DNA of 64,000 nucleotides from Bacillota bacterium (GCA_023436245.1 JAEZJZ010000046.1:16681-80680); one strand, 5' to 3'; shown: positions 4,061 through 18,014, counted from the first letter of the stretch. Notes: generated from the letters alone by a model not told the origin. Numbers and translations: made by a program.

Positions 4061-4993
4061 TTATGTCGCCTCTTCTTCGCGGTAGCGCCCGATAATCTCC
4101 TCAGCCACGCTTCGCATCCTTTTGCGCAACCCCTCCGGCTCCAATACGTCGATCTGCCCGCCATAACTCATCAGCCAACCAAACCAGCCCCGCTCGCGTT
4201 CGGGCAGACGCAGCTCCACCAGCCATCGCCCTTGACCATCGCGCTGGCAACTGGCTTTGGGAAAGCGCTCGCTGAGGGAGACCAGGAGGTGCTCCGGGCA
4301 GCGCACTCGGATGTCAAGAAAAGGTCCCCTGTCCGCCTGCTCGTGACCGGCCAGAACCTGAGGCCAGTGATCATGCGCTGACGCAAATGGTTCGCCAAGG
4401 CGCAACTCCTGCATGCGCGAGAGGCGAAACAGCCGATAATCCTGTCGCTCTCGACAGAAGGCGAACAGGTACCAGGCGTACCAACGATAGATTACTGCGA
4501 GTGGTTCCACCAGCCGATCACTCACCCGGCCCTCACCGTCCGTGTACAGAAAGCAGGCTGTTCGTCTGGCTTGCGTAGCCTGCCGCAGCAATGACATGCT
4601 CTGGGTCATGCAATCATCCTCACGCATGACGCCGAGGTCAACCTGCAACTCGCCGCCGAGGGAGGCAGGCGGTGCAATTGCGGTCAGCTTCTCCAAGACC
4701 CCATCCAAGCCCGAGTCTGGCAAACCGGAAGCCAGCCCCTTGACGGCGGTCAGCAGCAGCGCGAAGTCGCCTGCGCTGGCCAGCTGCCCTGTCATTCGCC
4801 AGCCGTCAGCCAACCGATAGCCGCCTTTAGCGCCCTGGACTGCCGTAACCGGAATGCCCGCCAGGCCCAGCGCCTCAATGTCGCGCTGAATGGTGCGCAT
4901 GGAGACCTCGAACCGCTCCGCCAGCCGGCTGGCCGATGCCTGCTCATGATTGAGCAGATAGGTGACAATCCCTAATAATCTCTCTATTTTCAT
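4061..4993 (-). CDS. YafY-family transcriptional regulator (HTH plus WYL domain)
   Basis: N-terminal HTH RLLGIVTYLLNHEQASASRLAERFEVSMRTIQRDIEAL, followed by a WYL-type core YRWYAWYLFAFCRERQDYRLFRLSRM. Confidence 0.8.
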   Translation of the reverse strand: MKIERLLGIVTYLLNHEQASASRLAERFEVSMRTIQRDIEALGLAGIPVTAVQGAKGGYRLADGWRMTGQLASAGDFALLLTAVKGLASGLPDSGLDGVLEKLTAIAPPASLGGELQVDLGVMREDDCMTQSMSLLRQATQARRTACFLYTDGEGRVSDRLVEPLAVIYRWYAWYLFAFCRERQDYRLFRLSRMQELRLGEPFASAHDHWPQVLAGHEQADRGPFLDIRVRCPEHLLVSLSERFPKASCQRDGQGRWLVELRLPERERGWFGWLMSYGGQIDVLEPEGLRKRMRSVAEEIIGRYREEEAT

Positions 4994-7206: not shown

Positions 7207-8019
7207 CTACTGCAATAGCTGCAGCAACTGCTCACGGCACTCCATCGCCGCCTGGTAACCGAGGCGAATATAGTGGTCGGTTCTGGTCAAGTCGATCAGG
7301 CTCTCCCCAGCCATCTTCGGCACAATAGACACATCAGCCTCGCATGACTCCACGACACTCAACTGCCGCTGCATGATTTCGAAGGAGCGCATCATCACGC
7401 CCATGATGCCGTCAATCTGTGCACTAGCGGCCGCAGATGCGTAAAGATCGACCGCAATCACTAGCTCAGCCCCCAGCTCCCGCGTTGTCTGCACCGGCAC
7501 ATTCTCCACTAGGCCTCCGTCCACCAATAGTTGTTCACCCCACTGCACCGGCTCGAACACGCCGGGGATAGAACAACTGGCGCGTACCGCCCTGGCCACA
7601 CTGCCATGCGACAGCACCACCCGCTCTGCAGAGTGCAGGTCGGTGCACACGGCGGCAAACGGAACGGCTAACGCATCAAAGTTGTGGCCGTGCAACAACT
7701 CCCCGAGTAGCTTCTCCATGCGCTCGTTACCCAACAAGCTGCGCCTCGGAACGAGTAGCTGGCTGAGATCCCGCCAACTCGTGCTGCGCGCCAGACCGGC
7801 CAACTGGTCGGGCGAATAGCCTGCAGCATAGAGCGCGCCAATGATACTGCCACTGCTGGTGCCAGCCACGCAATGCACCGGGACGCCGATTTCGCGGAGA
7901 GCCTGGAGAATGCCAATGTGTGCGATTCCACGCGCCGCTCCCCCACCTAAAGCCAATCCAATCTGTCGCAAAGCTTCCATCCCCTTTCTCTCTACACACA
8001 TTATCAGCCGGCGATTCAC
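7207..8019 (-). CDS. patatin-like phospholipase family protein
   Basis: Oxyanion box GGGAARG, nucleophile elbow GTSSG, and a DGG Asp box (LLVDGGLVENVP). An alternative start at Met 7980 (MEALRQIG...) is possible. Confidence 0.85.
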   Translation of the reverse strand: MNRRLIMCVERKGMEALRQIGLALGGGAARGIAHIGILQALREIGVPVHCVAGTSSGSIIGALYAAGYSPDQLAGLARSTSWRDLSQLLVPRRSLLGNERMEKLLGELLHGHNFDALAVPFAAVCTDLHSAERVVLSHGSVARAVRASCSIPGVFEPVQWGEQLLVDGGLVENVPVQTTRELGAELVIAVDLYASAAASAQIDGIMGVMMRSFEIMQRQLSVVESCEADVSIVPKMAGESLIDLTRTDHYIRLGYQAAMECREQLLQLLQ

Positions 8020-8041
8020 GTAAGAATTAGCAGGGAGATCG

Positions 8042-8074
8042 ATAGCGAATCAATATTCTAAATATTATCGCTAT
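8042..8074. promoter_or_regulatory. operator-like inverted repeat in the divergent control region
   Basis: ATAGCGA (8042-8048) and TCGCTAT (8068-8074) flank two AATATT boxes within an AT-rich stretch between the patatin gene and the membrane operon. Confidence 0.35.
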
Positions 8075-8226
8075 TACAGCAGGAGAAGGGTCCCTGGTGG
8101 ACGAATAATCAATCAACTCAAAGACTTCTGCTGTCTAAACATTCCCATGACTTGCATTATTATGCAATAGAGAACTGCGGCTGCTGAGGGCATAAACTCA
8201 GCCACCCAGAAACTGTAGGAAAGGAG

Positions 8227-9012
8227 GTGAAAATGATGAACCCAGGAACCATCTTCGTATTCTGCACTTTGTTGGCCTTTGGCGGATTGGTGATCGGCGT
8301 CCTCCTGGCGACACAGAAGGGAAAGATGCGGCCGAAGATTCGGCGCATTCCGGCCCTCGATTCCATTGAGGAGGCTGTGGGTCGTGCCACGGAAATGGGT
8401 CGCCCGGTGCACTTCACCACCGGTTACGGCGAAATCACCACTTCGACCGCTCCGCAGACGTTTGCTTCCTTTGCAGTACTGGAGCATGTGGTCGGTTTGA
8501 CTGCCAAGTACAACACCCAGTTGATCGTCTCCATCAAGTCAGCAGAGTCCTTCCCGCTGACACAGGAACTGGTGCGCCAGGCCTACTTGGCCTCCGGCAA
8601 GCCTGACATGTTCAAGGAGGATACCGTCCGCTTCATCTCCACGGCTCAGTTCGCATGGGCGGCCGGCGTGCTCGGCATCTTCAACCGCGAAAAGGTAGCG
8701 GCCAATATCATGATCGGTTACTTCATGGCCGAGTCCCTACTGTTCGCCGAAGGCGGCGCTCAGGTGGGAGCCATTCAAGTTGCCGGAACTGGTAACTTGG
8801 CTCAGACCGCTTTCTTCGTGGCTGCTTGCGACTACACGCTGATCGGTGAAGAACTCTATGCCGGCGGCGCCTATCTGTCTCAGGATCTGAAGCAGATCGG
8901 CAGTCTCGGCGGTCAAGACTATGTCAAACTGGTGACCATGGCCTTCATCGTCCTCGGGACTATCCTGGCGACGGCAAAGAGCACGTGGTTGGTTGATCTG
9001 ATGAAGAAGTAA
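8227..9012 (+). CDS. membrane protein of unknown function (operon gene 1 of 4)
   Basis: AAAGGAGGTG SD lies 5 nt upstream. N-terminal helix TIFVFCTLLAFGGLVIGVLLA, C-terminal helix LVTMAFIVLGTILA, and a central domain starting RRIPALDSIEEAVGRATEMGRPVHFTTGYG. No family recognised. Confidence 0.8.
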   Translation: MKMMNPGTIFVFCTLLAFGGLVIGVLLATQKGKMRPKIRRIPALDSIEEAVGRATEMGRPVHFTTGYGEITTSTAPQTFASFAVLEHVVGLTAKYNTQLIVSIKSAESFPLTQELVRQAYLASGKPDMFKEDTVRFISTAQFAWAAGVLGIFNREKVAANIMIGYFMAESLLFAEGGAQVGAIQVAGTGNLAQTAFFVAACDYTLIGEELYAGGAYLSQDLKQIGSLGGQDYVKLVTMAFIVLGTILATAKSTWLVDLMKK

Positions 9013-9033
9013 ACCAAACCCAAGGGAAAGGGG

Positions 9034-9699
9034 GTGCAATCAGTGCGCAGAACGGTTCCACTAGTAATCGTCTCTTTGGTCGGATTCCTGCTGCTCTCAG
9101 CGTATTTCTTTAACTTCGCCATTCCCGGCACAGGCACCGACTTGAAAGGCGTGTCCAGCACTATCACCAACTGGGGAGTCATCGTCGCCGCTTTCGCTGT
9201 GGGCTTGGCCTCAGTCAACCTGATCAGGATTCACATGGCCAAGGTAACCCGCCAGAGGGCAGACTGGATACACAGCCTGGCGCTAATCGTGACCATGTTC
9301 CTGTTCATTATCGTCGGTGTCTATTCAAAACACAATCCAGACAGCGCATCTGCCAAGGCTCTATTCCAGAACTTGTTCGATTATTCCTATAGCCCGTTCG
9401 GCTCGGCAATGTTCGCCATCCTGGGTTTCTATGTTGCCTCTGCGTCTTACCGCGCCTTCCGTATGCGCAGCTTCGAGGCCAGCTTGCTGCTCATCGCAGC
9501 CGTCCTGGTAATGATGGGTAACGCCCCAATCGGAGCTCTCATTTGGAACAAATTCCCGGTTATTGGCAACTGGCTGCTGTCAGTTGTGAACATGACCGGC
9601 CAGCGCGGAATCACCATCGGAGTCGCTATCGGCGGTTTTGCCACCAGTATGCGCGTTCTGCTCGGGTTCGACCGCGGCCATCTCGGCATCGGCGACTGA
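9034..9699 (+). CDS. polytopic membrane protein of unknown function (operon gene 2 of 4)
   Basis: About six hydrophobic helices. Start is GTG 9034 or, with better SD spacing, GTG 9043. It lies 21 nt after gene 1. Confidence 0.8.
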   Translation: MQSVRRTVPLVIVSLVGFLLLSAYFFNFAIPGTGTDLKGVSSTITNWGVIVAAFAVGLASVNLIRIHMAKVTRQRADWIHSLALIVTMFLFIIVGVYSKHNPDSASAKALFQNLFDYSYSPFGSAMFAILGFYVASASYRAFRMRSFEASLLLIAAVLVMMGNAPIGALIWNKFPVIGNWLLSVVNMTGQRGITIGVAIGGFATSMRVLLGFDRGHLGIGD

Positions 9700-9724
9700 G
9701 TGAGAGGAAAGGAGGTGCTCTTTC

Positions 9725-10546
9725 GTGCTAGAACGCTTACAGAACGTTGACCGCCGTATCATCTATGTGATCCTGTTGATCGTCTGCTTCGTGCCGATGG
9801 CCAAACCGATCGGCATTCCTCTGCAAGTCAATACTACAACGCAAATGGTCTACGACATTGTGGAGGGCCTGGATCCGGCCACGGACAGGGTGCTATTTGT
9901 GATGGACTACTCAGTCGGCGGTTCGGCTGACGTTCATCCGCAGGCAGTGGCAGTGGCCAAGCACTTGGCGAAGCGCCATATTCCCACGGTGATGGTCTCC
10001 TTTGTCGACAGCGGCACCATGTTCACCGAACAGATCATCACCATGCTGGGCGACCAGGTTACCTACGGCGTTGATGTCGTCAACTTAGGTTACATGGCCG
10101 GCATGGAGACTGCTGTCAAAGCATTCGTGGAGAACCCCAAGACATCTTTCACCCTTGACTACAACGGGAATCAGGTCGCCAGCCTGCCGATCATGCAGAG
10201 CGTGAGTGACATCCAGGATTTCTCGTTCATCATCGACTTCCAAACCGGTAACCCCGGCTACCAGGACTTCCTGCGGCAGTTGCCCGCTGGCATGTCCTAT
10301 GCAGCCGGCATCGTCACGGTGAGTGTGCCGAACGTGATGCCTTACCTCAGTTCCGGTCAGCTCTCCGGCCTGCTCCAGGGCCTGCGCGGAGCAGCTGAGT
10401 ACGAGGTTCTGCTTAAGGAGCCAGGCGATGGCGCGGCCATGATGGATGCCCAATCCATGGCGCACATGGTCATCATCCTGTTTATTGTCGTCGGCAATGC
10501 TGCCTATTTTCTGAACAAGAAATCGGCTGCCAAGCCGAAAGCCTAG
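9725..10546 (+). CDS. membrane-anchored protein of unknown function (operon gene 3 of 4)
   Basis: AAGGAGG SD lies 9 nt before the GTG. N-terminal helix IIYVILLIVCFVPMA and C-terminal helix MVIILFIVVGNAAYFL bracket a ~210-aa domain. No motif recognised. Confidence 0.8.
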   Translation: MLERLQNVDRRIIYVILLIVCFVPMAKPIGIPLQVNTTTQMVYDIVEGLDPATDRVLFVMDYSVGGSADVHPQAVAVAKHLAKRHIPTVMVSFVDSGTMFTEQIITMLGDQVTYGVDVVNLGYMAGMETAVKAFVENPKTSFTLDYNGNQVASLPIMQSVSDIQDFSFIIDFQTGNPGYQDFLRQLPAGMSYAAGIVTVSVPNVMPYLSSGQLSGLLQGLRGAAEYEVLLKEPGDGAAMMDAQSMAHMVIILFIVVGNAAYFLNKKSAAKPKA

Positions 10547-10568
10547 CGCTCAGTGAGGAGGTGAAACA

Positions 10569-11171
10569 ATGAACGTTTCGACTAACCCCTGGGTGTGGTT
10601 CATGGGCATAGGCATGCTCGCGCTCTTTTCCTTTATCTTTAAGGAGAATCAGGCCTACCGCCTGTTCGAGCATATCTATGTGGGCGCCGCAGCCGGCTAC
10701 GCCGTGGTGATCAACTACGGCAACATCGTCGACCGGGCTTGGACGCCTTTGGTCGAGAAGGGCGAAATGAGCCTAATCTTCCCCATCGCGTTGGGGTTAC
10801 TGCTGTACACGCGCTTCATCAAATCGATTTCCTGGCTGAGTCGCTGGTCGATGTCCTTCCTGCTGGGGATCGGCGTCGGAATCTCCGTCTACGGCACGCT
10901 GCAGTCTCAGTTGATTGCGCAGTCCAAAGCCGCGATGATGCCACTGACCTCCATCAACAACGTGATCATGTTCGTGGGAGTACTCTCCGTCATCTTCTAC
11001 TTCTTCTTCGCCATGGAGCAGAAGGGAGCCGCGCGTGAGGTCTCCAGAATTGGCCGCTACGTGATGATGATTACCTTCGGAGTCGCGTTCGGAAACGTGG
11101 TCATGGGCCGCATTTCGCTCCTGCTGGGATGTATCAATGATATCTTCGGCAAGTGGCTGGGGATTATCTAG
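10569..11171 (+). CDS. polytopic membrane protein of unknown function (operon gene 4 of 4)
   Basis: GAGGAGG SD lies 6 nt before the ATG. About six hydrophobic helices in 200 aa. Followed by a strong terminator. Confidence 0.8.
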   Translation: MNVSTNPWVWFMGIGMLALFSFIFKENQAYRLFEHIYVGAAAGYAVVINYGNIVDRAWTPLVEKGEMSLIFPIALGLLLYTRFIKSISWLSRWSMSFLLGIGVGISVYGTLQSQLIAQSKAAMMPLTSINNVIMFVGVLSVIFYFFFAMEQKGAAREVSRIGRYVMMITFGVAFGNVVMGRISLLLGCINDIFGKWLGII

Positions 11172-11186
11172 CTGACATCATCAATA

Positions 11187-11220
11187 ACAAGGCCCCGCAG
11201 TTCGCACTGCGGGGCCTTGT
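11187..11220. terminator. hairpin terminator between convergent genes
   Basis: 14-bp stem ACAAGGCCCCGCAG / CTGCGGGGCCTTGT with a 6-nt loop, followed by TT. Confidence 0.7.
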
Positions 11221-11244
11221 TTGCGCTCCAAACTCTACCCACCG

Positions 11245-12531
11245 TCAATCCAGGCGGCTGATAATGGTCAAAGCCGGCCGCAACCGCTCCAGCAACCCTG
11301 CCAGTTCCGGATCCGATGCCATCTCCTCCATCACCCTCGCCGCCGCCTGGGAAATCACCCCCGGCCCCCAGTACTTGATGCCACCCTGACGATCCAGTTT
11401 GGCAGCCCGATACTGGCAGAGATAGCCGAGCAAAACCAAGCGATAGTAGACCGCCAACCGGGTCATCTGCTGCTCGTATTCCGCCGTTTCTGACTCACTC
11501 AGATCGCGGTGACTGAGGTAATACTGGAACAAGCTGAGTTCATCCTCCGCGCCCAGACCAGTGGCTGGGTCGCAAACCAGCTCAATCGCATCAAAGGCGG
11601 AAACATCGGAGCGAACACCATCCCAACTGATGCGGTTAGCCGTTTTGCCCTGCATGAAAAAGGCACGGGGAGAGCTGTCCACTAGTCTCAAGCCAATCTC
11701 AGCCTCTGTCGTGCGGAACAGCGGTTCGGCGGCATCAATGATCTCGAAGAACTCTTCGCGGCTGACTGGAGCCCCCACTTTCTCCCAAGACGACAGAGAA
11801 TTCTGCAGTTCATCCCGGATCTTCTTTTCGAAGTGTCCTGCTCCGGGTGGGAAGAACCCCACGCTGTCCTTGCCGCGATCATGGAATGTGGCCAGATCGG
11901 CGAGCACAGACTGCAGCAAAGCCAGGCGCCCGCCCTGTTCAGACTGTTGCAGTAGGTCGTCTAAGCGGCTCGTTCCCACGCCCTCAGTCAGGGTAATCAA
12001 CTTCTTCGCATCATGGGCGATCAAACGCGGGAAGAACACCCCGATCTGGTTCAATCGCCGCAGGCCTTGGAGTTCAGCATCAACCTGCGCCTTCTTGGCG
12101 GCCAACACCTGCTCCTCCTTGGTCAGATCCTTGAATGGATCCTCCTTCAGACGCTCCAAGTAATCGCCACGCTGCATGGCCATCGGCGAGGACGAGGGGT
12201 CGATCATCATCTCATCGGCCCCGGGGCGCGAGTTACGTTCTCTCTCGCGCTGCAACGACTCCAGTGGGTAGACGATCTGTGCCAGCAATGGACGTTTGCT
12301 GCCGTCAGCAAATCCGGCAACCATACTGTAATACACCCGTTCCTCGGCTTGATCTGCGCCAGCCGGGCCAAGGGCCAGGCGACTCACCTGCAGTCGCGTC
12401 GGGCCCTGCCCCCGTAGATCCTTGACATAGCGACCAACGAAGTTTCTATTCAGACGGAGATCGCCCGGGTGATTGATCCTCCAAATGAGCAAAACGATGA
12501 AAACCAGCAGGACAGCATAGAGCATTGCCAT
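11245..12531 (-). CDS. membrane-anchored hypothetical protein with weak, degenerate protein-kinase-like (APH-type) features
   Basis: GGAGG SD lies 7 nt upstream. N-terminal helix LYAVLLVFIVLLIW. LVDSSPRAFF and ISWDGVRSD loosely resemble the APH HGDxxxxN and DxE/DFG boxes but lack the His and Asn. The fold call is speculative. Confidence 0.6.
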   Translation of the reverse strand: MAMLYAVLLVFIVLLIWRINHPGDLRLNRNFVGRYVKDLRGQGPTRLQVSRLALGPAGADQAEERVYYSMVAGFADGSKRPLLAQIVYPLESLQRERERNSRPGADEMMIDPSSSPMAMQRGDYLERLKEDPFKDLTKEEQVLAAKKAQVDAELQGLRRLNQIGVFFPRLIAHDAKKLITLTEGVGTSRLDDLLQQSEQGGRLALLQSVLADLATFHDRGKDSVGFFPPGAGHFEKKIRDELQNSLSSWEKVGAPVSREEFFEIIDAAEPLFRTTEAEIGLRLVDSSPRAFFMQGKTANRISWDGVRSDVSAFDAIELVCDPATGLGAEDELSLFQYYLSHRDLSESETAEYEQQMTRLAVYYRLVLLGYLCQYRAAKLDRQGGIKYWGPGVISQAAARVMEEMASDPELAGLLERLRPALTIISRLD

Positions 12532-12763: not shown

Positions 12764-13960
12764 CTACAGCTTGGCTGCTTCAGCCAGTTCGTGACCCACC
12801 TTGACTAGGTTGGCTATCTCGGCTTCTTTCGGATTCCAACGCATGGAGACCCCATCGCCGAGCAAGCTCCAGCCAATCCGCTGCAGATAGTGATTGATGG
12901 CCGCCACCGATCCGCCGCCCCAGCCCTCAGAGCCGAAGGCAATCGCTGTCTTGCCGGCTGGTTTGAGGCCAGCCAGGTCGTCCAGCAAGGGGGCTACTGT
13001 AGCCAACATCCCGCGATTGGTTGTGGGCGATCCAATGGCGACCGCCCTGGCCGACTGAATCGCCGCGATCAAGTCGTTGCGATCTGTCTTCGAGATTCGG
13101 AACAATTGATACTCCACTCCGCTAGCAGCTACCCCCGCGGCTATGGCATTGGCCATGCGGGCTGTGCTTTCCCACATGGTGTCGTAAGCGATGACCACTT
13201 TGGCCTGACGAGACTCCTGGGACCAGTTCTGATAGGCCTGCAAAATGCGATTTGGGTCCTGGCGGAAGATGACGCCGTGGCTGGGGCAAATCTGCTTGAT
13301 AGGCAACTGCAGTTCCCCCACTTCCTGCAGTTTCTTGGCAACCAGCCGAGAAAACGGAGTGAGGATGTTGGCATAGTACTTGGTCGCCTCTTGCATGACT
13401 ACTGACATATCCACCTCATCATCAAAGCGACCGGAACTGGCGTAGTGCTGACCAAACGCATCGTTGGGCATGAGAATCGCGTCTTCCTTGATGTAGGTGA
13501 ACATGCTATCCGGCCAGTGCAGCATGGGTGCCTCCAGGAAGGTGAGGGTCCGCTTGCCCAGTTTGACCTCATCGAAGGTCTTGAGGACATTGTAGTCCCA
13601 GTTCTGATGAAACTGTTGGGTCAGGAACTCTGCCCCTTTCGCGGTGCAGTAGAGCTTTGCCTCCTTGGCCGTGTCCATTACCAGCGGCAGAGCACCGGAG
13701 TGGTCGACCTCGCTGTGGTTACTGATCACGCGTGTGATGCGCGCCGGATCGATCACCTCTGCTATGTTGCGCAGCAGTTCGTTGGCAAACGGCGTGTAGA
13801 CAGTGTCGACCAGCGCGACCTCGTCATCGACGATCAGGTAGGCGTTGTAGGTTGTGCCTCGGTGGGTGGAATAGGCCGGGCCGTGAAAATAGCGAATATC
13901 CCAATCGATCGCTCCCACCCAGTAGACGTTCGGAGCGACTTCCCTTACCGGCATTTGCAT
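12764..13960 (-). CDS. fprA: flavodiiron protein (FprA-type A flavoprotein: metallo-beta-lactamase-like plus flavodoxin domains)
   Basis: N-terminus VYWVGAIDWDIRYFHG, di-iron motif HSEVDHSG, C-terminal flavodoxin segment KVVIAYDTMWESTARMA...AVAIGSPTTN. Confidence 0.88.
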   Translation of the reverse strand: MQMPVREVAPNVYWVGAIDWDIRYFHGPAYSTHRGTTYNAYLIVDDEVALVDTVYTPFANELLRNIAEVIDPARITRVISNHSEVDHSGALPLVMDTAKEAKLYCTAKGAEFLTQQFHQNWDYNVLKTFDEVKLGKRTLTFLEAPMLHWPDSMFTYIKEDAILMPNDAFGQHYASSGRFDDEVDMSVVMQEATKYYANILTPFSRLVAKKLQEVGELQLPIKQICPSHGVIFRQDPNRILQAYQNWSQESRQAKVVIAYDTMWESTARMANAIAAGVAASGVEYQLFRISKTDRNDLIAAIQSARAVAIGSPTTNRGMLATVAPLLDDLAGLKPAGKTAIAFGSEGWGGGSVAAINHYLQRIGWSLLGDGVSMRWNPKEAEIANLVKVGHELAEAAKL

Positions 13961-14083: not shown

Positions 14084-15001
14084 TTAGCGCTGTTCACGGA
14101 AGGATTGTCCCCTGACTGTCACCTGACGCAGGTGCTGGTTGATCACCTCGGGATAGCTCTGCACCGCATCCCGGTTTTCCCGGAGCAACTGATCATATTC
14201 CTGACCGAGCTGATGGTTGATCACAGACAGCTCCCCAAACGCGTGCTTTCCCAGACCGGCAGCCTGCTCACAATCGGGAGAACAGGGAAAGAAGTTCTTG
14301 GTGAAATAGGCCCAAGGTTCCCGCTTGTCAGCAGGAATGCTGAGCAACTCGTAGGCCGCCCTGGTCTCAACGTTGACCTCACCCGCGCGATTGTCCCGAT
14401 ATGCTTGAATGCAGCAAGAGGGATAACCGAGCAACCGTCCCAGCTTGGCGAGATAATCTGGCGACTGTTCTTCCGGGTAAATGAGCAGCGCCAGTGGGGT
14501 CGAGCGGGTGGCCCGTTTGTGCAGCTCCTCTTTGATGCGCAAGCGTTCGGCCATCAGCTCGTGCAGTTCATCCTCCACGGAGGGGCTCCGGAAGAGATAC
14601 ATCTCCCGTACAGTCGGTCGGACCTCCCAGAAGAATGTGCGCAGGCCAAACGCTCTCGCCCAATAGAGCAATGCCTGATAACCTGCCGATTCCTCTACCA
14701 CCTGCTGGTAGGCTTCCCGCACCAGTTGGCGCTTCCAGGTGACGGGCCGCTGCCCCAAGTGCTGTAACTGCCATTTTGTTCTCTGCCACCAGCTCTGCTG
14801 TTCCAGTTCCTGCAGGCGACTGCGATAACGGCTGTCTATCTGCAGACCCAGCTGCTCTCCGTCCGGCAGCTCGCCTGGTATGGTCAGCAAGCTCAACGGC
14901 TTGACGCCCAACGCTACCAGCAGGAACCCTTCAATCCGAATGCGGGGCGATATTCGCTCCTCTTGAACAAACCGTTCGATCAGCTGTGCCCTGGCTGGCA
15001 T
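14084..15001 (-). CDS. Cys-motif protein resembling DUF483 (GYPxCC family), function unknown
   Basis: GGAGGAGG SD lies 7 nt upstream. LGYPSCCIQAY and FFPCSPDCEQA motifs are present. The family name is recalled from memory and not verified. Confidence 0.6.
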   Translation of the reverse strand: MPARAQLIERFVQEERISPRIRIEGFLLVALGVKPLSLLTIPGELPDGEQLGLQIDSRYRSRLQELEQQSWWQRTKWQLQHLGQRPVTWKRQLVREAYQQVVEESAGYQALLYWARAFGLRTFFWEVRPTVREMYLFRSPSVEDELHELMAERLRIKEELHKRATRSTPLALLIYPEEQSPDYLAKLGRLLGYPSCCIQAYRDNRAGEVNVETRAAYELLSIPADKREPWAYFTKNFFPCSPDCEQAAGLGKHAFGELSVINHQLGQEYDQLLRENRDAVQSYPEVINQHLRQVTVRGQSFREQR

Positions 15002-15360: not shown

Positions 15361-16122
15361 ATGGCGGACATCTCCGAGCTCTTCTGGCAGGCAGATCTGC
15401 AGGACATCAAGCGCGGTTATACCCACCAACAGGAAACTGACCAGTATACCTGCCTGATCTGCGGCCAGAGTTTCGAAAACGGGCGCATCTACTCCCATCA
15501 GGGGCAGCTGTACCAGGCTAAGAGATTCGTGGAACTGCACATCCGCAACGAGCACGATTCCGTGTTCAGCTACCTGCTACAGCTTGACAAGAAGTTGACC
15601 GGCCTGACTGAGCACCAAAAGACACTGCTCAGTCTCTTCTACGCAGGGCATGGCGACAGCGAAGTGGCCAAACAGCTCGGCACTGCCACCTCCACGATCC
15701 GCAACCATCGCTTCAGCCTGCGCGAAAAGCAAAAGCAGGCCAAACTGTTTCTGGCACTGATGGAACTGCTGGCTGAGCAAACACCCCAGCGACAGGCCTT
15801 CATTGAGATTCCTCGCAACAGCAGGCAGGTTGATGATCGCTTCGCCATCACACAAGCAGAACGAGAGGAGATTCTTGCCAAGTATTTTGCGGAAGGGCCG
15901 GACGGGCCAATCTCCTCCTTCCCCACCAAAGAGAAACGCAAAGTGGCGATTCTGCACCACCTGGTGGAGCGCTTCAAACTAGGCCAAACCTATACCGAAA
16001 AAGAAATCAACGCCATCCTGCGCCCCATCTACGATGACTATGTCTTGCTCCGGCGCTATTTGATCGAGTATGGGTTTCTTGATCGGACAAGTGATGGCGG
16101 CTCTTACTGGGTGAAGGTCTGA
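15361..16122 (+). CDS. putative transcriptional regulator (C2H2-like finger, LuxR-type HTH, DUF2087-like C-terminus)
   Basis: CLICGQSF...HIRNEH, then LTEHQKTLLSLFYAGHGDSEVAKQLGTATSTIRNHRF, then the C-terminal KRKVAILHHLVERF...YTEKEINAIL...DDYVLLRRYLIEYGFLDR. Confidence 0.7.
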   Translation: MADISELFWQADLQDIKRGYTHQQETDQYTCLICGQSFENGRIYSHQGQLYQAKRFVELHIRNEHDSVFSYLLQLDKKLTGLTEHQKTLLSLFYAGHGDSEVAKQLGTATSTIRNHRFSLREKQKQAKLFLALMELLAEQTPQRQAFIEIPRNSRQVDDRFAITQAEREEILAKYFAEGPDGPISSFPTKEKRKVAILHHLVERFKLGQTYTEKEINAILRPIYDDYVLLRRYLIEYGFLDRTSDGGSYWVKV

Positions 16123-18014
16123 CCGACAGCCGCGCTTGCGCCCTCAAGGGGCGCTTCTGCGTCGCCAGGCAGCCGGAAGTGCACCCGAAAGACGCTCCCC
16201 GACGAGCCGGTGTCAAAGCTCAGGCGCGCACGATGCTTGGAAACGATGCTATAGCAGGTGAGCAAGCCCAGCCCGGTGCCGGAATCCTTGGTCGTGAAGA
16301 AGGCGGTACCGAGCTTGGCCTGATACTCCTGAGGAATGCCGCAGCCCTGGTCCGCCACTTCCAGCACGACCTCGGCACCTTGCGCATAGGTGGAAATTGT
16401 CAGGCGACCGCCCTGGCTCATTGCTTCCAGCCCATTGCGCACCAGGTTGAGCAACAATTGGCGAATCTCCTTCAGGTCAATACGGATATCCGGGATTTCG
16501 TCCAACTTGAGGATGATCTCGTTTCCGCGCAAGGCCGCCTCCGCCTCCATCAGCGGCATGAGGATGCGTACGGCACTGCTCAGACTGTGCAATGCCATCT
16601 CGGTGGGCTTGTTCCGCGCCAATGAAAGAAACTCGCTGATGATCCCGTTCACGCGGTCCAGTTCCTCGATCATCAGGTCCATCTGTGCCTGCAGGGGGCG
16701 CAGTTCCGGACGCCTGAGCATCAACTGCAGATAACCCCTGACCGTGGTCATTGGGTTGCGCACTTCATGCCCAATGCTGGCAGCAATGCCTCCGACCAGA
16801 TTCAGTCGGTCCAGTTGAGCGATTTCGCTCTGCAGCCGTTTGAGTTCAGTGATGTCCCGCGCCAGGACTGAAACCCCGACAATCTCGCAGCGCTCGTTTC
16901 TGATCGGAGAAAGGTTGAGCGACATGTTGATCAGTCGTCCATCCTTGCGCTTACGGCTGGCTTCCACCTGCAACGCTTGCCCGGCAAGCATCTGCTCAAG
17001 GTAAGGTATCTTCACCTTGTCACCATCATCGGGAAGCAGGACGGAAACCAGTTCTCCCCTGATTTCGGACTCAGCATAGCCATATGTCCGCTCCGCCGCG
17101 GGGTTCCAGCTATTGATTACTCCATCGAGATCAAAACTGTAAATAGCAACGTCAGCATTCCGCACCAGGGCGGCGTAGTGCCGCAACTCGTCCTGTCTCC
17201 GCTTCTCGGCGGTTATATCCTCAATCTGGCAGACACAGAGCAGGCGTCGATCCTTGTCGCTAACCAAGGCAGTGGCAGTGATCCTGGCCCAAGCTACAGC
17301 GCCGGAACTGGTGACGTAGCGCTGCTCCAGTTCATAGGAGCGAATGCGACCGGATGCCAAGGCCGTGAACATCTCCGCCCCGGCCGGAAGATCTTCCGGA
17401 AAGGTGCAGAACAGAAAGTGGCCGCCGACCAACTCGTGCCTGGAATAGCCCAAGAATGACGAGATGGACGCATTCACAGCCAGAACTGTACCAGAAGCAT
17501 CGAGCAGCATCATGCCGGCAGTGGCAAACTGGCTGATCATGGAGAAGCTCTGAATGATCTCATCCACTTGCTTGTTCTGCACCAAAGCGTATCCGGCTGC
17601 TGTTTTCACCTGTTCGGAGGCCAATGGGAGCGGATTGCGAACTGGGTTCTGCACGATAATACTCAGCAGGCAGCGCTGACCCCTGATCTTCAGTCCACGC
17701 GACTGGACAGTCACCGGGAAGGCGTTGCCGGACCGGTGTCGATGAGTGGCAATGAACCGCAAACCGTAACGCTCGGCCAAGTCCGATCGAATATTGATGT
17801 CTGAACCCTCGTTGACCCTCAAGTCAGACATGTTCAGACTCAGCAGATCGGCATGGGAGTAACCGTAAAGACGTTCAGCCGCCCGATTTGCGTCCAGAAT
17901 CCTGCCGTCAGCAGCACAGAGCAGCACTACCTCCTCTGCCTGCTCCACCAGGTCCGGAGATCTGCCGGCGTCTTTCCGCATCTTCACCATCTCCTCAATT
18001 GACTGAAATCTCAC
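16104..18014 (-). CDS. multi-PAS sensor histidine kinase
   Basis: H-box IGHEVRNPMTTVRGYLQL, N-box LVRNGLEAM, G1 DQGCGIP, G2 GTGLGL. The N-terminal ~400 aa contain repeated PAS-like segments. Its 3' end overlaps the convergent gene by 19 nt. Confidence 0.88.
   Translation of the reverse strand: MRFQSIEEMVKMRKDAGRSPDLVEQAEEVVLLCAADGRILDANRAAERLYGYSHADLLSLNMSDLRVNEGSDINIRSDLAERYGLRFIATHRHRSGNAFPVTVQSRGLKIRGQRCLLSIIVQNPVRNPLPLASEQVKTAAGYALVQNKQVDEIIQSFSMISQFATAGMMLLDASGTVLAVNASISSFLGYSRHELVGGHFLFCTFPEDLPAGAEMFTALASGRIRSYELEQRYVTSSGAVAWARITATALVSDKDRRLLCVCQIEDITAEKRRQDELRHYAALVRNADVAIYSFDLDGVINSWNPAAERTYGYAESEIRGELVSVLLPDDGDKVKIPYLEQMLAGQALQVEASRKRKDGRLINMSLNLSPIRNERCEIVGVSVLARDITELKRLQSEIAQLDRLNLVGGIAASIGHEVRNPMTTVRGYLQLMLRRPELRPLQAQMDLMIEELDRVNGIISEFLSLARNKPTEMALHSLSSAVRILMPLMEAEAALRGNEIILKLDEIPDIRIDLKEIRQLLLNLVRNGLEAMSQGGRLTISTYAQGAEVVLEVADQGCGIPQEYQAKLGTAFFTTKDSGTGLGLLTCYSIVSKHRARLSFDTGSSGSVFRVHFRLPGDAEAPLEGASAAVGQTFTQ

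Follow-up and report, generated by a model that had tools for sequence, protein, structure and literature searches.

TRAP (DctPQM) and TTT (TctABC) transporters are multi-subunit, ATPase-independent membrane systems with an extracytoplasmic alpha/beta component and a small and a large polytopic subunit. They are found in bacteria and archaea, as many substrate-specific paralogues per genome, often beside catabolic enzymes. In ECF/CbiMNQO transporters, a single operon encodes several small membrane subunits. RCK/KTN domains (Trk/Ktr/MthK) and USP domains are alpha/beta sandwiches on the cytoplasmic side of membrane complexes. Here, a system for which TRAP/TTT, ECF/CbiMNQO and RCK-regulated transporters are the nearest analogies in working mode is described from a 64,000-nucleotide stretch of a Bacillota bacterium genome (GCA_023436245.1 JAEZJZ010000046.1:16681-80680; the whole stretch is called the window, and positions are counted from its first letter). 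It is well supported that four consecutive genes, designated g1-g4, encode one conserved functional unit of integral membrane proteins, of a family without a characterised member. The unit is named the DUF6754 system, after its sole catalogued subunit (g1).

Like TRAP and TTT transporters, the DUF6754 system is multi-subunit and ATPase-independent, combines a predicted extracytoplasmic alpha/beta component (g3) with polytopic subunits (g2 and g4), has many paralogues per genome, often beside catabolic enzymes, and occurs in bacteria and archaea. Unlike these transporters, g1-g4 carry no DctP, DctQ, DctM, TctA, TctB or TctC signature (Pfam, NCBIfam; no PDB profile match). The g3 ectodomain is modelled as single-lobed and is tethered at both ends, whereas the TRAP/TTT binding protein is two-lobed and free or lipid-anchored; an extra, probably cytoplasmic, doubly anchored alpha/beta subunit (g1) is present; and g2 and g4 have only ~6 helices each, in contrast to the 12 helices of DctM/TctA. 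Membership of TRAP/TTT was rejected, as no subunit was matched in Pfam, NCBIfam or PDB profiles.

The operon of several small membrane subunits is shared with ECF/CbiMNQO, and CbiN of CbiMNQO is likewise a two-helix protein with an extracytoplasmic loop; CbiN, however, is ~100 amino acids long and has no folded alpha/beta domain, unlike g1 and g3. Neither an ABC ATPase, EcfT or S-component signature nor a Walker A motif was found in g1-g4, and ABC/ECF membership was rejected (Pfam gave no more than a noise-level match of g3 to BPD_transp_1, E = 0.67, and NCBIfam gave nothing). g1 would resemble RCK/KTN and USP domains as a cytoplasmic alpha/beta sandwich on a membrane complex. The MthK RCK domain was among the g1 Foldseek matches (probability 0.99), but with a template-modelling score (TM-score) of 0.27-0.29 and E = 0.03-0.05. 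Unlike RCK domains, g1 is anchored at both ends, is the most conserved subunit rather than an accessory one, and has no GxGxxG after strand 1: the loop there reads PG(I/Y)GxIT, and the sole GxGxxG-like string of g1 (GTGNLA, residues 187-192) follows strand 5. With no GxGxxG after strand 1 and no significant structural match, g1 was rejected as an RCK/KTN or dinucleotide-binding Rossmann domain.

Distribution and co-divergence of the DUF6754 system

One genome per GTDB species was scanned; more than 586 stretches encode a g1 relative, and the best 79 loci were analysed. In tblastn searches with the four queries, the order g1-g2-g3-g4 on one strand was found at every locus with enough flank, and it is kept in 76/76 complete clusters among the 79 loci. 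Co-occurrence of the four genes in other genomes, which a preliminary description of the locus had named as a check, was thus found. The pairwise-identity matrices of the four proteins correlate (r = 0.77-0.86, 76 clusters), and the nearest neighbour is common to the subunits in 48-49 of the 76. Mean pairwise identity is highest for g1 (48.6%) and lowest for g3 (36.9%), which are therefore the most conserved and the most divergent subunit in this set.

The hosts are mostly uncultured Bacillota: Fermentithermobacillaceae (class DTU015), Symbiobacterium and 'Eubacteriales' bins. Other bacterial hosts belong to Armatimonadota, Stahlbacteria, Sumerlaeota and Eisenbacteria, and the archaeal ones are Bathyarchaeia, a Nitrososphaerota-labelled bin, Ca. 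Culexmicrobium and other Thermoproteota. The cultured species Symbiobacterium thermophilum is present in the set as a metagenome-assembled genome (MAG), which carries an extended version with the GlmL-like module treated below. The g1 family comprises at least 7448 clusters at 90% identity, and the g2 family, by profile search, 2743 clusters at 50% identity.

Many genomes hold three to five copies of the gene cluster. At least three were found in the closed 2.3-Mb genome of Ca. Fermentithermobacillus carboniphilus, four in MAG124 and 4-5 in SBF912LR0HQ0179. Tandem arrays of 2-4 clusters are present at L001, L007, L035, L037 and L040 (up to four in L035), and paired clusters are convergent in L043 and divergent in L060. 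Two contigs of SBF912LR0HQ0179 carry clusters (L007:4681-7626 and L008:10001-12946) with the same identities to the query (61/56/50/63%); these may be an assembly duplicate, so that copy numbers per MAG are approximate. No second copy was found in the 64-kb window.

Subunit families, structures and topology

g1 is a full-length member of the Pfam family DUF6754 (PF20539): the match reached E = 5e-86 and 288 bits (gathering score 27 bits), residues 6-257 aligned to profile positions 8-255 of 257, and g1 homologues carry the same precomputed domain. PF20539 is a catalogue entry without known function, and no paper naming DUF6754 or PF20539 was found in full-text literature searches. g2, g3 and g4 are outside its coverage and gave no Pfam match better than E = 0.01. 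For all four proteins, no NCBIfam match and no PADLOC match at E <= 1 were obtained, and sequence and profile searches of the PDB returned noise only (E >= 0.38). Database homologues are all labelled 'hypothetical' or 'DUF6754 domain-containing', and an exact-sequence look-up of the window g2 returned no record. In a motif scan, g1-g4 contained no Walker A, HExxH, GxSxG, CxxC or DxHxxG motif; there are 0-2 Cys per protein, no Cys clusters and no redox or cofactor motifs.

The preliminary description had placed the four products in no family. This has to be amended for g1, which falls in DUF6754; for the rest it holds, as DUF6754 has no assigned function and g2, g3 and g4 match nothing. The absence of catalytic motifs, also claimed there, agrees with the motif scan. 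The claim of an uncharacterised system stands, since neither a match to a characterised family (Pfam, NCBIfam, PADLOC, PDB) nor a lack of co-occurrence was found. An anti-phage defence system was rejected: PADLOC gave no match, and no g1 relative was found on mobile replicons (tblastn of g1 was negative for 72,556 plasmids and for 50,697 phages). Carriage by mobile elements was rejected on the same plasmid and phage searches.

Structure models cover g1 and g3, and g2 and g4 are known from sequence profiles, hydropathy and charge. The AlphaFold2 models were confident for both g1 (predicted local distance difference test, pLDDT, 91.1; predicted template-modelling score, pTM, 0.85; alignment of 108 homologues) and g3 (pLDDT 90.0, pTM 0.85; 100 homologues). 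They are alike: a long membrane helix at the N-terminus and a short helix lead into six beta-alpha units, which are followed by a long membrane helix at the C-terminus, with nearly equal order and spacing of the secondary-structure elements and an extra, seventh short strand in g1. Comparison of the four subunits by hhalign (locus-derived and database alignments) gave no homology (probability <= 2%); no subunit pair being homologous at the profile level, a common origin of g1 and g3 can only be inferred. All Foldseek runs (g1 and g3 against the PDB, g1 against viral models) gave generic three-layer alpha/beta matches only (E >= 2e-3, TM-score <= 0.36); the TM-scores are probably depressed by the membrane helices of the full-length models.

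In the g1 model, a (beta-alpha)6-type alpha/beta domain (residues 42-218) lies between membrane helices 9-30 and 221-249. The family-averaged count of Lys and Arg directly after the first transmembrane helix (TM1) is 4.07, which indicates that the domain is probably cytoplasmic. In a g1 variant at L086:5946-7988, the DUF6754 domain is preceded by a signal peptide, a hydrophilic stretch of ~340 residues and three hydrophobic segments; the variant has a secreted N-terminal extension of ~360 amino acids and two more membrane helices than the usual g1. This arrangement would again leave the DUF6754 domain inside. Conserved elements of g1 are EEAVGRATEMGRPVHF, PGxG after strand 1, AGTxN after strand 5 and AACDYxLIGEE, the invariant polar residues being E49, R53, T55, E56, C201, D202, Y203, E208 and E209. 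Placed on the model, the conserved residues gather at strand ends and helix starts. Foldseek gave no match at E <= 1e-3 for g1, either in the PDB (best E = 9e-3, TM-score <= 0.36) or among viral models; the top matches were non-significant, generic three-layer alpha/beta folds (SIS, MCP/LOG-like, RCK, PGK).

The g3 model has a single, six-stranded alpha/beta domain (residues 37-230) between membrane helices 10-26 and 235-268. On family average, the two tails hold 7.25 Lys and Arg residues and the flanks of the domain 3.3, a bias which places the termini inside the cell and the domain outside; the g3 domain is therefore predicted to be extracytoplasmic. Its conserved elements are DYS after strand 1, NLGYxAG, VTVSVP and AAEYE, the last helix bears MDAQSxxH at its outer end, and here too the conserved residues sit at strand ends and helix starts. 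No PDB match at E <= 1e-3 was found by Foldseek (TM-score <= 0.36), halves of GT-B glycosyltransferases being the best, non-significant, matches. g3 was rejected as a periplasmic solute-binding protein, as it has one lobe in the model and no Pfam or PDB match to such proteins.

g2 has six hydrophobic segments in family-averaged hydropathy and Arg/Lys-rich loops at residues 64-80 and 138-148, which reads as a predicted topology of six membrane helices with both termini inside. N62, H67, Y133, S136 and an RxFRxR putative cytoplasmic loop are invariant columns. No internal repeats were detected in g2. g4 likewise has ~six hydrophobic segments by family-averaged hydropathy, and its sequence hints at a build-up from three two-helix hairpins in tandem, each with an aromatic-rich helix end, a K/E loop and then xRxxxxxxxGxxxG; alignment of repeat 1 with repeat 2 by hhalign was weak (probability 22%). 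These results agree with the topology first proposed for the locus, in which hydrophobic helices at both ends of g1 and g3 surround a ~200-amino-acid domain and g2 and g4 have about six segments.

Many g2 relatives carry inserts in loops. In the loop between TM3 and TM4, where large domains are accommodated, a WD40 propeller, TPR repeats, repeats that look CBM-like and coiled-coil-like segments were found (homologues with inserted domains: P0368, P0487, P0505, P0429, P0404, P0446 and P0377). In the g4 homologue at L087:7155-8432, an EF-hand segment stands in the TM4-TM5 loop, at the position of g4 residues 126-132. The loops that take inserts in both families are predicted to face outward.

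Proposed function

The products of g1-g4 are inferred to form one hetero-oligomeric inner-membrane complex, of presumed assembly and stoichiometry, with ~16 membrane helices per 1:1:1:1 unit. Around ~90 clusters (76 complete), only 17 likely co-transcribed neighbours (same strand, within 120 nucleotides) were found, so that the unit is usually self-contained, as had been claimed for the operon in the window. These neighbours are mostly amide hydrolases: they include Amidohydro_3 and Amidohydro_1 proteins (D-aminoacylase-like or Xaa-Pro-dipeptidase-like), as well as creatininase-family, class A beta-lactamase-like and PF13941 proteins. By Pfam, the immediate neighbours (n = 138) comprise Amidohydro_1/3 (9), PF13941 (6), PHP (5), M81 (MlrC; 3) and creatininase (2) proteins, and the second neighbours (n = 125) M20 (4), DHDPS (3), amidohydrolases (3) and ABC ATPases (3). 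Given the general composition of genomes, amidohydrolases are well above background and PF13941 is far above it. At L086 the cluster adjoins an Opp-type ABC system and an M16 peptidase; ABC genes are near only some relatives.

We tentatively read the DUF6754 system as a multi-subunit, substrate-diversified uptake transporter for peptides or amino-acid derivatives. A transporter is favoured because of the paralogue expansion, the conservation gradient, the number of membrane helices and the amide-breakdown neighbours. Several paralogous clusters per genome would resemble substrate-specific transporters, and a gradient from g1, the most conserved, to g3, the least, would be like that between an energiser and a binding component. 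With no match to a characterised family, it would probably be a transporter of a new type. Transport as such is a proposal, and so are its direction, the class of substrate, the energy source and the sidedness of the g1 and g3 domains.

In such a transporter, g2 and g4 would provide the membrane pathway. The Rossmann-like domain of g3, on the outer face and tethered by a helix at both ends, would be a built-in substrate-binding or gating module that sets specificity, and the cytoplasmic domain of g1, of similar layout, would be a conserved coupling or regulatory module, whose strands may offer, at their C-terminal edges, a site for a small phosphorylated ligand. Peptides, or amino-acid derivatives that contain an amide, would be the substrates. 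For Ca. Fermentithermobacillus, fermentation of peptides and amino acids has been predicted (PMC10215811).

Several points weigh against transport. Pfam, NCBIfam and PDB searches gave no transport-family signature in any subunit, no universal energy-coupling partner was found among related loci, and no conserved acidic residue stands out within the membrane. The channel or carrier fold of g2 and g4 is putative, and the outer-loop inserts (WD40, TPR, coiled-coil-like, EF-hand) look more like macromolecule binders than parts of a small-solute carrier. Single-lobe alpha/beta ectodomains are not known among solute-binding proteins. Enrichment among the neighbours is modest (~11% of first and second neighbours) and is judged against general background frequencies, not a computed control; in the window itself, the neighbours (a patatin-like lipase, ProRS and a 428-amino-acid protein) are uninformative.

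The outward loops also bear on another reading, which we consider improbable: an envelope or surface machine for the export, anchoring, assembly or turnover of an extracytoplasmic protein or glycan, with g3 and the outer loops of g2 and g4 as the platform. The WD40, TPR, coiled-coil-like and EF-hand modules and two CBM-like-looking repeats in relatives would suit such a platform, as would the secreted N-terminal domain of the L086 g1 variant and the non-significant likeness of g3 to GT-B glycosyltransferase halves. The system is present, however, in Bacillota and in archaea, which have no envelope polymer in common; an assembly machine would not usually be present as three to five divergent copies per genome or in tandem arrays; the neighbours are metabolic hydrolases rather than envelope-synthesis genes; and no glycosyltransferase, flippase or secretion signature was found in Pfam or NCBIfam searches.

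The transporter reading would matter for lineages that are dominant in anaerobic digesters, subsurface sites and sediments (DTU015/Fermentithermobacillaceae, Symbiobacterium, Bathyarchaeia, Sumerlaeota and Armatimonadota), where there are thousands of clusters, often three to five per genome, and their proteins are annotated as hypothetical. If the system is a transporter, metabolic reconstructions of these organisms miss a main uptake route, and its membrane architecture is new, with mirror-placed tethered alpha/beta domains and two six-helix subunits. With its small proteins, its confident models of g1 and g3 and a cultured species, Symbiobacterium thermophilum, in the set, the system is amenable to direct testing.

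Accessory GlmL-like module and alternative functions

In 10/87 loci (Bacillota, Sumerlaeota and others), three further genes on the same strand stand directly beside g1-g4. They encode a small protein of ~100-130 amino acids, a PF13941 protein of ~610 amino acids (GlmL/MutL family, ASKHA fold) and a highly conserved 375-amino-acid protein. This module is downstream of the cluster in L020, L025, L026, L027, L033, L034, L037 and L063 and upstream in L077 (Sumerlaeota) and L086 (for example L025:13030-15947 and L086:2067-5897), and it is doubled in L027, L033 and L063. By NCBIfam, the PF13941 proteins fall short of the cut-offs for true GlmL or Or-4, and no genes for B12 mutase subunits were found among the recurrent neighbours. 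The recurrent link suggests a role for the little-understood GlmL family outside B12 mutase operons; searches of the literature around GlmL and ornithine clusters found nothing relevant. The N-terminus of the 375-amino-acid protein has a sub-threshold likeness to barrel-sandwich-hybrid domains (biotin/lipoyl and, at E = 0.004-0.05, RnfC_N and NqrA_N), and the protein has no PDB relative. That likeness, at other loci, is the sole link to Rnf/Nqr, and membership of Rnf, Nqr, Mrp or decarboxylase pumps was rejected for want of a family match and of Cys clusters.

Nowhere in the 64-kb window is the module encoded, and the locus was accordingly rejected as an extended DUF6754 system. The statement of the preliminary description that there is no ATPase partner is thus true in the window; it does not extend to about 1/9 of the loci, where a GlmL-like ASKHA-fold protein is adjacent.

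The module might point to an energy-converting machine, ATP-driven or ion-coupled, of which g1-g4 would be the membrane part and the GlmL-like, 375-amino-acid and small proteins the soluble partners; we regard this reading as still more improbable than a surface machine. Clusters without the module would borrow one encoded elsewhere, much as a single energiser is shared by group II ECF transporters; the scattered specificity modules of ECF systems, which use an energiser encoded elsewhere, are a possible parallel. In its favour, the module adjoins g1-g4 on either side and is sometimes doubled, PF13941 accounts for 6/138 immediate neighbours with no B12 mutase genes recurring, the 375-amino-acid protein is weakly like RnfC_N/NqrA_N of ion-pumping complexes, and g1 is both the most conserved subunit and predicted to face the cytoplasm. 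On the other side, ~88% of loci lack the module, as does the window; the RnfC_N/NqrA_N matches are far below threshold; and g1-g4 are free of redox or cofactor motifs. We know of no ATPase activity in GlmL-family proteins.

A membrane-bound enzyme or sensor, in which conserved pockets of g1 or g3 would catalyse or sense on a scaffold of g2 and g4, is very unlikely: the invariant polar residues of g1 at strand ends are as in Rossmann-like active sites and its top fold neighbours, although non-significant, are ligand-binding domains (SIS, MCP/LOG-like, RCK), but no catalytic motif or family match was found, four co-diverging membrane subunits with heavy paralogue expansion are atypical of a single enzyme, and the output domain needed by a sensor is missing.

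To return to uptake, a wider form of the transporter reading appears doubtful, if conceivable. The system would be a new class of bacterial and archaeal transport machine with two unrelated six-helix subunits and two doubly anchored alpha/beta domains of like layout on opposite membrane faces, an outside receptor (g3) and an inside coupler (g1). It would be driven or serviced in some lineages by a GlmL-type ASKHA ATPase module, and would be a major, hitherto unrecognised route of uptake of peptide-derived compounds in uncultured anaerobic fermenters.

Locus organisation and genomic neighbourhood

The coordinates of the locus and its neighbours are listed in Table 1.

Table 1. Features of the DUF6754 locus and its surroundings in the window
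Feature	Position	Strand	Remarks
WYL/HTH (PafC-like) regulator	4061-4993	-	window neighbour
Divergent patatin-like gene	7207-8019	-	upstream neighbour
Control region	8020..8232	+	intergenic, common to g1 and the divergent patatin-like gene; g1 Shine-Dalgarno site GGAGG 8223-8227
Inverted repeat, imperfect	8041..8075	.	from RNA folding
g1	8233-9012	+	259 amino acids; DUF6754; mechanical open reading frame begins at GTG 8227
g2	9043-9699	+	218 amino acids; polytopic; alternative start GTG 9034
g3	9725-10546	+	273 amino acids; doubly anchored
g4	10569-11171	+	200 amino acids; polytopic
Intrinsic-terminator-like hairpin	11186..11221	.	between g4 and the convergent gene 11245-12531
Open reading frame of 428 amino acids	11245-12531	-	convergent on the terminator; no Pfam or NCBIfam match
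Flavodiiron-like protein (metallo-beta-lactamase and flavodoxin)	12764-13960	-	window neighbour
DUF483 protein	14084-15001	-	window neighbour
Multi-PAS histidine kinase	16104-18014	-	window neighbour

The + strand of the window carries four mechanical open reading frames (8227-9012, 9034-9699, 9725-10546 and 10569-11171), and each gene has its own Shine-Dalgarno (SD) site. The mechanical starts of g1 and g2 overlap their own SD sites and are therefore probably not the true starts. From the position of GGAGG, ATG 8233 is the probable start of g1; the resulting length is that of P0121 (98% identical, 259 amino acids), other homologues having 258-260 amino acids. For g2, the probable start is GTG 9043, after GGGGG, which gives the same length as the 94%-identical P0001 (218 amino acids). 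g3 starts at GTG 9725 (SD AGGAGGTG at 9710-9717, 7-8 nucleotides upstream) and g4 at ATG 10569 (SD GAGGAGGTG, 7-8 nucleotides upstream).

In the preliminary description, the four same-strand reading frames, an SD site for each and the starts of g3 and g4 had been given as found here. The spacing of 21-25 nucleotides reported there is indeed tight, but the first gap is 21-30 nucleotides depending on the choice of start, the others being 25 and 22. The terminator, described as a 14-bp stem (11187-11220), was found with a perfect, GC-rich stem of 16 bp (11186-11201/11206-11221) and a 4-nucleotide loop; it folds with dG -31.5 kcal/mol (z = -7.5), and its T-run is short and partly within the stem. 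As the hairpin lies between convergent genes, it is probably bidirectional.

The inverted repeat reported at 8042-8074 is a real hairpin at 8041-8075, but a weak one (-10 kcal/mol, z = -2.5; 2/200 shuffles fold equally well), and it is not kept upstream of the closest relatives (L001-L004), where only the SD site aligns. A conserved operator upstream of g1 was rejected on this ground; the repeat is possibly a local operator, or nothing. A promoter scan of the control region gave two weak sigma-70-like matches (8039-8068 and 8136-8163; 9/12 each). No Rfam family matched the leader of g1, and thus no riboswitch or leader RNA was found.

None of the PafC-like regulator, flavodiiron-like protein, DUF483 protein and multi-PAS kinase genes recurs beside the cluster in other genomes. 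Elsewhere, the upstream gene at several Fermentithermobacillaceae loci (L065:4160-7930, also L054 and L064) encodes a ribonucleotide reductase with a LAGLIDADG intein, and a PHP-domain protein is encoded downstream of the cluster in 5 loci; both adjacencies look like lineage synteny, not a functional link. Finally, a sigma-54 activator (PAS, AAA and HTH_8 domains) is encoded directly upstream of the cluster at L087:1960-3288, which suggests sigma-54-dependent regulation in that lineage.

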